A DNA stretch of 17,813 bases from a virus (Duplodnaviria > Heunggongvirae > Uroviricota > Caudoviricetes). The notes below the pieces were generated by a model, which was given only the letters and a program-made list of their open reading frames with translations, made no database searches and was not told the DNA's origin. The stretch is taken from IMG/VR virus record IMGVR_UViG_2529292871_000023; one strand, given 5' to 3'. Positions 4,116-4,719 of the stretch are shown in pieces. Both the position numbers and the translations under genes were made by a program. The stretch's first letter is position 1. Each line of letters starts with the position of its first letter.

Positions 4116-4307
4116 TTAAAGACCTGCCGGGATTTCGTTATTATCCTGGTGAATAACTTTATCGACAGGGTAACAGTTACCGGGAATTTTCTGTTCGGTT
4201 GCTGCAGTCACACACTCCTGCATTGTCCTGTGAACACTGACTGCAATATCAACTGGCTCTCCGGAAACAAGAAAAACTGTCAGAACAAGTGCAAATGCTG
4301 TATTCAT
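4116..4307 (-). CDS. ydfD: YdfD-like small secreted/membrane lysis protein of the dicB operon
   Basis: 63 aa, MNTAFALVLTVFLVSGEPVD... with an N-terminal hydrophobic segment. Its ATG overlaps the dicB stop (ATGA). Size and position match Qin ydfD directly downstream of dicB. Confidence 0.65.
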   Translation of the reverse strand: MNTAFALVLTVFLVSGEPVDIAVSVHRTMQECVTAATEQKIPGNCYPVDKVIHQDNNEIPAGL

Positions 4308-4492
4308 TGCCAGCATCCTTTTTGTATCGGACGTAAACGGGCCAGCATTGAAAGAATGCATATTTTATTTAATAGCTCCCGTTCGTGTTTTCTCTTGTTA
4401 ATGGCATCTTCAGTAAATACAGGGTTACTGATAGTGACACCAATTTCAAAACAACCTTCAGACGTATTAACGTTTGGTAATAACGTTTCCAT
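4304..4492 (-). CDS. dicB: DicB cell-division inhibitor
   Basis: 62 aa, METLLPNVNTSEGCFEIGVTISNPVFTEDAINKRK..., matching my recollection of E. coli Qin DicB. GAGGA ribosome-binding site 7 nt upstream; located immediately downstream of DicF. Confidence 0.75.
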   Translation of the reverse strand: METLLPNVNTSEGCFEIGVTISNPVFTEDAINKRKHERELLNKICILSMLARLRPIQKGCWQ

Positions 4493-4661
4493 TATCGCGT
4501 CCTCAACAATGAATTTTGTGATGCGGTGCCTGGTGCCTCCAGGTGACGTTAACCAGTTAACAATTAACGCCGGATACAGAGAATCCACCCATAACACTGT
4601 TTTTGGTTTTAACTGTTCCGCGTGCGCTCAGCCGCATTCACCGCATCACAAAATTCACTTT

Positions 4662-4719
4662 AAAAAGGGCGGCAGAGCAGTCACGGAGTAAAACTGATAC
4701 CGCCAAACGTCACCAGAAA
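4662..4719 (-). ncRNA. dicF: DicF small RNA (ftsZ-targeting, processed from the dicB operon transcript)
   Basis: Minus-strand sequence TTTCTGGTGACGTTTGGCGGTATCAGTTTTACTCCGTGACTGCTCTGCCGCCCTTTTT matches the DicF sequence as I recall it, ending in a GC-rich hairpin plus U-tract. Sits directly upstream of dicB. Confidence 0.6.

Follow-up and report, generated by a model that had tools for sequence, protein, structure and literature searches.

A close described relative of the element treated here is the dicBF operon of the Qin prophage of Escherichia coli K-12, in which the genes are ordered ydfABC-dicF-dicB-ydfDE and are repressed by DicA. DicF is a small RNA (sRNA) that pairs near the Shine-Dalgarno sequence of ftsZ and represses its translation, and it also regulates xylR, pykA and manX (PMC5069750, PMC6832061). 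DicB blocks formation of the Z ring: it binds MinC, and the complex is brought by way of ZipA to the septal ring, at which MinC depolymerises FtsZ without a need for MinD or MinE; the same DicB-MinC interaction blocks ManYZ-dependent entry of phage DNA (PMC6832061). YdfD binds IspG and causes lysis, from which cells are spared if DicB or SulA blocks division (PMC8835842). The promoter dicBp, reported just upstream of ydfA, is repressed by DicA, DicC is Cro-like, and the antirepressor Rem can lift the repression (PMC10448788). Copies of dicBF were described in 2016 in the lambdoid prophages CP-933O, M and P of O157:H7, which are about twice the size of Qin (PMC5069750), and enterohaemorrhagic E. 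coli (EHEC) has four copies of dicF, the product of which, at low oxygen, acts as an activator of pchA and a repressor of stx2A (PMC7873438). Here we describe a DicF-dicB-ydfD cassette on the minus strand of the IMG/VR virus record IMGVR_UViG_2529292871_000023 (Caudoviricetes), the whole stretch of 17,813 nucleotides (nt) being called the window. We are highly confident that it is a canonical dicBF cassette, situated in the early-left (PL-equivalent) operon of a lambdoid prophage with an immC region of the P22 type, which lies at the 3' end of ompW and is of the 'PPompW'/CP-933O kind.

The Rfam model of DicF (RF00039) matched positions 4718-4667 on the minus strand over its whole length (1-52 of 52), without non-canonical pairs, and the score of 76.7 bits is well above the gathering score of 48 (expectation value, E, 1e-15). 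Positions 4719-4667 equal the annotated 53-nt dicF of K-12 (b1574) with zero differences, and they lie within a run of 196 nt (window 4839-4644) in which the window and K-12 are identical throughout. Five T residues follow DicF directly (4666-4662), in K-12 as well. Folded alone, the RNA has 15 unpaired nt at its 5' end, then the terminator hairpin, then UUUUU, with a minimum free energy (MFE) of -15.9 kcal/mol and a z-score of -2.3. A sequence-only reading of this DNA had placed a match to DicF at 4662-4719. The RNA is indeed there, as the Rfam model confirms, and that span consists of the 53-nt RNA plus the T5 tail of its terminator.

The dicB gene runs from an ATG at 4492 to a TGA at 4306-4304 and encodes 62 amino acids (aa). 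Pfam family PF05358 (DicB) covers the protein from end to end (model 1-62 of 62; 127.4 bits, cut-off 27; E 1.7e-37), and 55 of the 62 residues (89%) are identical to K-12 DicB in a BLASTP alignment (E 9e-41). The ydfD gene starts with the ATG at 4307-4305, ends with the TAA at 4118-4116 and encodes 63 aa. It matched PF07358 (DUF1482) with 88 bits against a cut-off of 25 (E 3.7e-25) and shares 59 of 63 residues (94%; E 4e-45) with the K-12 'lysis protein' YdfD, both cysteines being kept. Its N-terminus is hydrophobic, with a mean hydropathy of about 1.9 over residues 1-19. Both proteins are 100% identical to those annotated in the ompW prophage of O55:H7, DicB under accession WP_000449192.1, and both accessions are also annotated in another related E. 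coli prophage. The genes overlap by ATGA (4307-4304), that is, the TGA of dicB lies within the ATG-A of ydfD, and K-12 has the same overlap. Shine-Dalgarno-like motifs precede the starts of dicB (GAGGA) and ydfD (AAGGA). The sequence-only reading had named a 62-aa DicB and a 63-aa YdfD-like protein joined by this overlap; the pairwise alignments to K-12 and the Pfam matches bear out both assignments, and the overlap is read directly from the letters.

The layout upstream of the cassette is that of a dicBF operon, with a divergent gene pair of the dicA/dicC type and, downstream of the dicA-like gene, a promoter accompanied by operator-like palindromes. A promoter scan placed the promoter-like site between the repressor gene and orf99, the first gene of the operon, with a -35 box TTGACC at 6450-6445 and a -10 box TAAATT at 6426-6421. 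The -35 box and a transcribed leader of about 60 nt (6415-6357) align near-perfectly with the region just 5' of K-12 ydfA. The pattern TTAG-N6-CTAM, a 14-bp palindrome, was found at five sites in the window, all of them in the two regulatory regions of the immunity locus, and two of these (6424-6437 and 6460-6473) flank or overlap the dicBp-like promoter. Counted by strand there were 8 matches where 0.63 are expected by chance, and 8 was reached in none of 200 shuffles. Judging from the layout, the five palindromes are probably operators of the DicA-like repressor. At the equivalent positions K-12 carries different sequences, of the type TTAGC...GCTAA, and these together with a repressor identity of 63% suggest that the immunity specificity differs from that of K-12.

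DicF is accompanied by two stems. The first is a perfect 19-bp inverted repeat (4657-4639 and 4528-4510) that encloses 110 nt of the spacer between DicF and dicB; it follows the DicF terminator immediately, and 17 nt separate its end from the dicB start codon. Folded alone, this spacer has an MFE of -63.1 kcal/mol and a z-score of -6.7 against shuffled sequences. The other is a leader hairpin 5' of DicF (4922-4910 and 4863-4851), found both as an inverted repeat and in the fold, with a z-score of -2.75. In K-12, the 53-nt form of DicF has a 5' end made by ribonuclease (RNase) E and a 3' end given by the terminator (PMC5069750, PMC10448788), the 3' end of a 72-nt form is made by RNase III (PMC5069750), and RNase III also makes the 5' end of a 190-nt precursor (PMC10448788). 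Taking these reported lengths over to the window, the RNase III cuts would map to about 4648 and about 4856, inside both stems. Two stem positions that are U.G and G.U in K-12 are C-G and G-C in the window, as would be consistent with pairing, and the O55:H7 copy has one A.C mismatch there. With five sequences compared, the comparative (covariation) support for the 19-bp stem is weak.

Coordinates of the dicBF operon and its immediate neighbours in the window
Feature	Positions	Strand	Description	Basis
DicF sRNA	4667..4719	-	53 nt; single-stranded 5' seed part and terminator hairpin	RF00039; identity with K-12
T5 run	4662..4666	-	completes the intrinsic terminator of DicF	direct reading; identical in K-12
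Structured DicF-dicB spacer	4510..4657	-	19-bp closing stem around four hairpins; putative RNase III substrate giving the 3' end of the 72-nt DicF	
dicB	4304..4492	-	62 aa; MinC-dependent cell-division inhibitor	PF05358; K-12 alignment; WP_000449192.1
ydfD	4116..4307	-	63 aa; DUF1482 lysis protein; start overlaps the dicB stop	PF07358; K-12 alignment
Untranslated leader	4720..5263	-	5' of DicF; contains the hairpin 4922-4910 / 4863-4851	K-12 homology begins at about 5054
orf135	5264..5671	-	hypothetical; in the operon, within a 637-bp segment absent from Qin	PHROG 1363 (function unknown)
ydfC homologue	5694..5912	-	72 aa	96% identical to ydfC annotated in the O55:H7 prophage; PHROG 1744
orf99	5985..6284	-	first gene of the operon, at the place of K-12 ydfA/ydfB	PHROG 21318 (function unknown)
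dicBp-like promoter	6421..6473	-	promoter with two operator-like palindromes	promoter scan; K-12 conservation; pattern search
DicA-like repressor	6549..6956	-	135 aa; HTH_3	63% identical to K-12 DicA; Pfam HTH_3 / Phage_CI_repr
Operator-like palindromes	6958..7022	.	three, between the divergent repressor genes: 6958-6971, 6983-6996, 7009-7022	
DicC-like Cro	7033..7260	+	75 aa	83% identical to K-12 DicC; Pfam P22_Cro
Exonuclease pseudogene	1576..4023	-	equivalent of K-12 ydfE; directly downstream of ydfD	tblastn pieces in three frames

What we establish for this copy is which three products it encodes, that they are intact, how the operon is laid out, and its operator-like sites and RNA structures. 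Because DicF is identical to that of K-12 and DicB and YdfD are 89-94% identical, the mechanism known from K-12 is taken over for the window, and that this copy works in the same way is by far most likely, each biochemical step below being carried across from the K-12 locus. In a lysogen the DicA-like repressor (6956-6549) would bind operators of the TTAG-N6-CTAA type, both at the promoter (6450-6421) and in the repressor/cro region, and keep the operon off. After derepression a single leftward transcript would cover orf99, ydfC, orf135, a leader of 545 nt, DicF, dicB and ydfD. Cuts by RNase III would fall in the leader hairpin and in the long stem that follows DicF, the 5' end of DicF would come from RNase E, and the intrinsic terminator would yield the 53-nt form. 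Together with Hfq, DicF would pair with ftsZ mRNA so that less FtsZ is synthesised, and it would also act on xylR, pykA and manX, and on pchA in EHEC. From transcripts that read through the terminator, DicB and YdfD would be translated; DicB would bind MinC, be brought to the Z ring via ZipA and also block ManYZ-dependent entry of phage DNA, while YdfD, starting inside the dicB stop codon, would bind IspG and lead to lysis of dividing cells. The description of the cassette as one of cell division and lysis, which the sequence-only reading had offered, agrees with the literature on the near-identical K-12 products (PMC6832061, PMC8835842). Its statement that FtsZ and MinCDE function are inhibited stands for FtsZ, as DicF represses ftsZ and DicB blocks the Z ring, and has to be corrected for MinCDE, as DicB uses MinC (PMC6832061).

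Several findings weigh against a simple transfer from K-12. The DicF-ftsZ duplex predicted by RNAduplex has an energy of -38.5 kcal/mol, and 50 of 500 shuffled DicF sequences were as good; because this energy is unexceptional, the evidence for pairing is the published mutational analysis of the identical RNA, which validated it in K-12 (PMC5069750). Seven of the 62 residues of DicB are changed from the K-12 protein, and five of these changes are among the last 9 residues, so that binding of MinC by this allele is assumed; the same allele is annotated in O55:H7, O157:H7 and other genomes among the best matches. The repressor has only 63% identity to DicA and its putative operators differ, and the regulation given above is proposed from layout. 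Finally, exo and xis, downstream of the cassette, have decayed, and part of the operon is thus no longer under selection.

The function for which the cassette is kept could also be another one than its name implies. It may be retained mainly for superinfection exclusion, with DicB acting against ManYZ-dependent entry and DicF against manX, and, in attaching-effacing pathotypes, for low-oxygen activation by DicF of pchA and the locus of enterocyte effacement (LEE); 'cell-division and lysis' would then denote over-expression phenotypes and not the selected function. We regard this as possible, although on the doubtful side. It agrees with the finding that resistance to phage is DicB-dependent and requires MinC (PMC6832061), and with the four dicF copies of EHEC and their opposite effects on pchA and stx2A (PMC7873438). 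The prophage in the window carries the paa adhesin gene, its closest relatives are in O55:H7, O157:H7 and other pathogenic strains, and the module is also present in isolated, presumably viable lambdoid phages. The proposal is nevertheless compatible with the K-12-type mechanism, since the same molecules and interactions are used in both, and the sequence gives nothing that separates a selected role from an over-expression phenotype.

The spacer between DicF and dicB resembles a second RNA family. At relaxed thresholds, positions 4669-4460 on the minus strand match the full Rfam model of STnc100 (RF02076, 1-206). The score of 40.1 bits (E 6e-7) lies below the gathering score of 47, so that the threshold for membership is missed, and the spacer of the O55:H7 prophage reaches 31.9 bits. 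A bona fide STnc100 is located in the late region of the window (16259-16431, plus strand; 100.8 bits). A motif of 22 nt, TCACCNGGAGGCACCNGGCACC, is common to the spacer and the true STnc100 and occurs nowhere else in the window, and its two N positions are a base-pair-preserving exchange, U-A in place of G-C. The spacer and STnc100 have the same closing helix, and the terminal hairpin CCUGG-AGGCA-CCAGG of the spacer corresponds to CCGGG-AGGCA-CCCGG in the true STnc100 of the window. They differ in that the closing stem of the spacer (19 bp) is far longer than that of STnc100, and in that the spacer lies between DicF and dicB whereas the true STnc100 lies upstream of an esterase gene in the late region. 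From score and motif, the spacer is probably a distant relative of STnc100 and not a member.

A stronger version, in which the 150-nt spacer (4657-4510) is a diverged member of the STnc100/PasD group and forms a second RNA module on the dicBF transcript, seems unlikely to us. A 2026 preprint relates STnc100 to the PasD sRNAs and does not mention dicF or dicB, and a literature search found no link between STnc100/PasD and the dicB leader. If the stronger version were true, cleavage by RNase III in the 19-bp stem would both set the 3' end of the 72-nt DicF and release or inactivate an STnc100-like RNA or the dicB leader, and maturation of DicF, translation of dicB and a second riboregulator would be linked. 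The sub-threshold match is a small new point, and it gives a testable hint that the dicB leader may be akin to prophage RNAs of the STnc100 type.

To examine the prophage around the cassette, the annotated proteins of the O55:H7 prophage were placed on the window with tblastn and the two sequences were aligned base by base. Over its whole length the window is colinear, at 98.1-98.4% identity, with prophages that O55:H7 and other pathogenic E. coli carry at the 3' end of ompW. Its gene order is int, xis, exonuclease, ydfD, dicB, DicF, ydfC, repressor/cro, ydaT, O-like, P, paa adhesin, hokD/sok, DUF968, rusA, Q, two tRNAs, STnc100 and SASA esterase, and the order int-xis-exo-ydfD-dicB-DicF...ydfC...repressor/cro-ydaT-O-P is common to two annotated E. 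coli prophages and the isolated phage mEp460. The integrase gene is intact (427 aa) and its product is 100% identical to that of the O55:H7 prophage. In xis (1265-1511, minus strand) an additional T in a T run at 1391 shifts the frame. The exonuclease gene (823 codons) has six insertions or deletions relative to O55:H7 (-2, -3, -22, +1, +1, +1), the 22-nt deletion being at about 2478, and its substitution density is raised. The O-like replication gene with a DnaT domain (7767-8785, plus strand) is split over two frames, likewise in O55:H7, and rusA (13997-14364, plus strand) is frameshifted. The broken exo allele was absent among the eight listed best matches in complete E. coli genomes (identity at most 98.1%), all of which have an annotated exonuclease coding sequence. 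On alignment evidence the decay looks specific to the source of the window, unless the single-base insertions and deletions are assembly or sequencing errors. The prophage had been called more complete than Qin with int, xis and replication genes still present; this is right for gene content (int intact; xis, exo, the O-like gene and P present) and wrong for intactness (xis, exo, the O-like gene and rusA broken). By sequence it is far richer in genes than Qin, yet it is not evidently a functional phage.

With exo, xis, the O-like gene and rusA all broken, and with the damaged exo allele in none of the listed best-matching complete genomes, the cassette might itself be a silent, decaying remnant, unexpressed or non-functional, whose open reading frames (ORFs) are intact merely because too little time has passed. 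We consider this very improbable. DicF has remained 100% identical to K-12, DicB and YdfD are 100% identical to the O55:H7 proteins, and the intact features include the repressor, cro, the -35 box of the promoter, the operator-like sites and the RNase III stems. In addition, the stretch 4001-4500 with dicB and ydfD carries one substitution relative to O55:H7, against 92 in positions 1501-3000 of the exonuclease pseudogene. That chance resemblance or mis-called short ORFs explain the three matches, as the small size of dicB and ydfD and the several overlapping ORFs on both strands could suggest, is already refuted by the Rfam, Pfam and BLASTP scores and expectation values given above, and the synteny with K-12 Qin extends over about 1 kb.

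Some further features of operon and prophage were recorded. Upstream of DicF, homology to K-12 reaches only to about 5054 and resumes at ydfC (5912-5694). The segment of 637 bp in between (5053-5690), absent from K-12 Qin and located between ydfC and the DicF leader, holds orf135 and orf77; the latter (5053-5286, plus strand) converges on orf135 with an overlap of 23 nt and is antisense to the dicBF transcript. A role of orf135 or orf77 in defence or as a toxin-antitoxin pair was looked for, with zero matches in PADLOC or Pfam, and their PHROG families are of unknown function. The product of orf99 is 100% identical to a hypothetical protein of the O55:H7 ompW prophage; it was tried as an N-like antiterminator and rejected, being not arginine-rich and having no Pfam match. 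No functional claim is made for a terminator-like hairpin after ydfD (4078-4065), as the scan gave 3 sites and shuffled sequences 3.8.

Differences between the window and O55:H7 occur in sharp patches, with 27 substitutions in 4501-5000 and none in many other bins of 500 bp, a pattern that suggests recombination between prophage copies. The hokD/sok type I toxin-antitoxin locus (11812-12111, plus strand) was recognised by the Rfam sok model with 103.9 bits, hokD being 100% identical to the annotated protein. Two tRNA genes (15247-15319 and 15413-15486, plus strand), annotated as tRNA-Ile and tRNA-Arg in related genomes, follow the Q antiterminator gene. The paa gene (10865-11623, plus strand), coding for an adhesin of the AcfC family, is a moron between the replication and nin regions, and a frameshifted fimbrial gene is annotated just 5' of it in related genomes.

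A query of 1.6 kb containing the cassette matched 4760 of 5426 complete E. coli genomes (about 88%), with a median of 2 places per genome and a maximum of nine. In a phage collection from 2025 the 631-bp cassette matched 38 records, eight of them over the full length, including mEp460_ev081 at 99.5%, and isolated lambdoid phages (mEp460_ev081, Tritos, HannyBb, PhiR42_1 and the vB_Eco series) carry it at 94-99.5% identity. A paper of 2016 reported zero matches to DicB or DicF among about 2,000 phage genomes (PMC5069750); the near-unchanged module in isolated lambdoid phages updates this statement that no sequenced phage carried them. The cassette is a normal accessory module of circulating lambdoid phages and is not peculiar to cryptic prophages. 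The cassette itself, its products, its regulation and its presence in the larger lambdoid prophages of the O157 type are already published, so that the finding is real but ordinary. Its use lies in a clean annotation of the copy in the window, with operon limits, promoter, operator-like sites and processing stems, and in correcting the surrounding prophage from complete to decaying.

Compared with the dicBF operon of K-12 Qin, the window has the identical DicF, the ATGA overlap, ydfC and the divergent dicA/dicC pair. The leader is shared from about 340 nt 5' of DicF, as are the -35 box of dicBp and the first 60 nt of the transcript. Where K-12 has ydfA and ydfB the window has the unrelated 99-aa orf99, and in place of the ydfE truncated by IS2 and the intQ pseudogene it has a full-length, although frameshifted, exonuclease gene, xis and an intact int. 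All 17.8 kb, with int, the immunity region, paa, hokD/sok, Q and the tRNAs, are colinear with the ompW prophage of O55:H7 at 98.4%. That prophage has intact exo, xis and rusA, unlike the window, and its DicF (compared on the minus strand at the position syntenic with window 4667-4719) has kept the 5' 20 nt while the hairpin and loop are replaced; it scores 43.5 bits, below the Rfam threshold, whereas the window has DicF of the K-12 type. Copies of dicBF are carried by CP-933O, M and P and the Sp prophages of O157:H7, and by the 'PPompW' prophages of O55:H7 and other Shiga toxin-producing E. coli.

In the isolated phages mEp460_ev081, Tritos, HannyBb and PhiR42_1 the 631-bp DicF-dicB-ydfD segment is 96.7-99.5% identical to that of the window over its full length. 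Phage mEp460 has the same layout as the window, int-xis-exo-ydfD-dicB-DicF...C2 repressor/cro, and its DicF scores 76.7 bits. The isolated phages differ from the window in an intact exonuclease gene of 2472 nt and in the genes between DicF and the repressor. A functional analogue is Kil of phage lambda, which is reported to be a small division inhibitor directed at FtsZ, encoded in a repressor-controlled early-left operon and dependent on ZipA (PMC3961180). Compared with DicB by function only, Kil acts on FtsZ/ZipA without MinC and without an sRNA partner.

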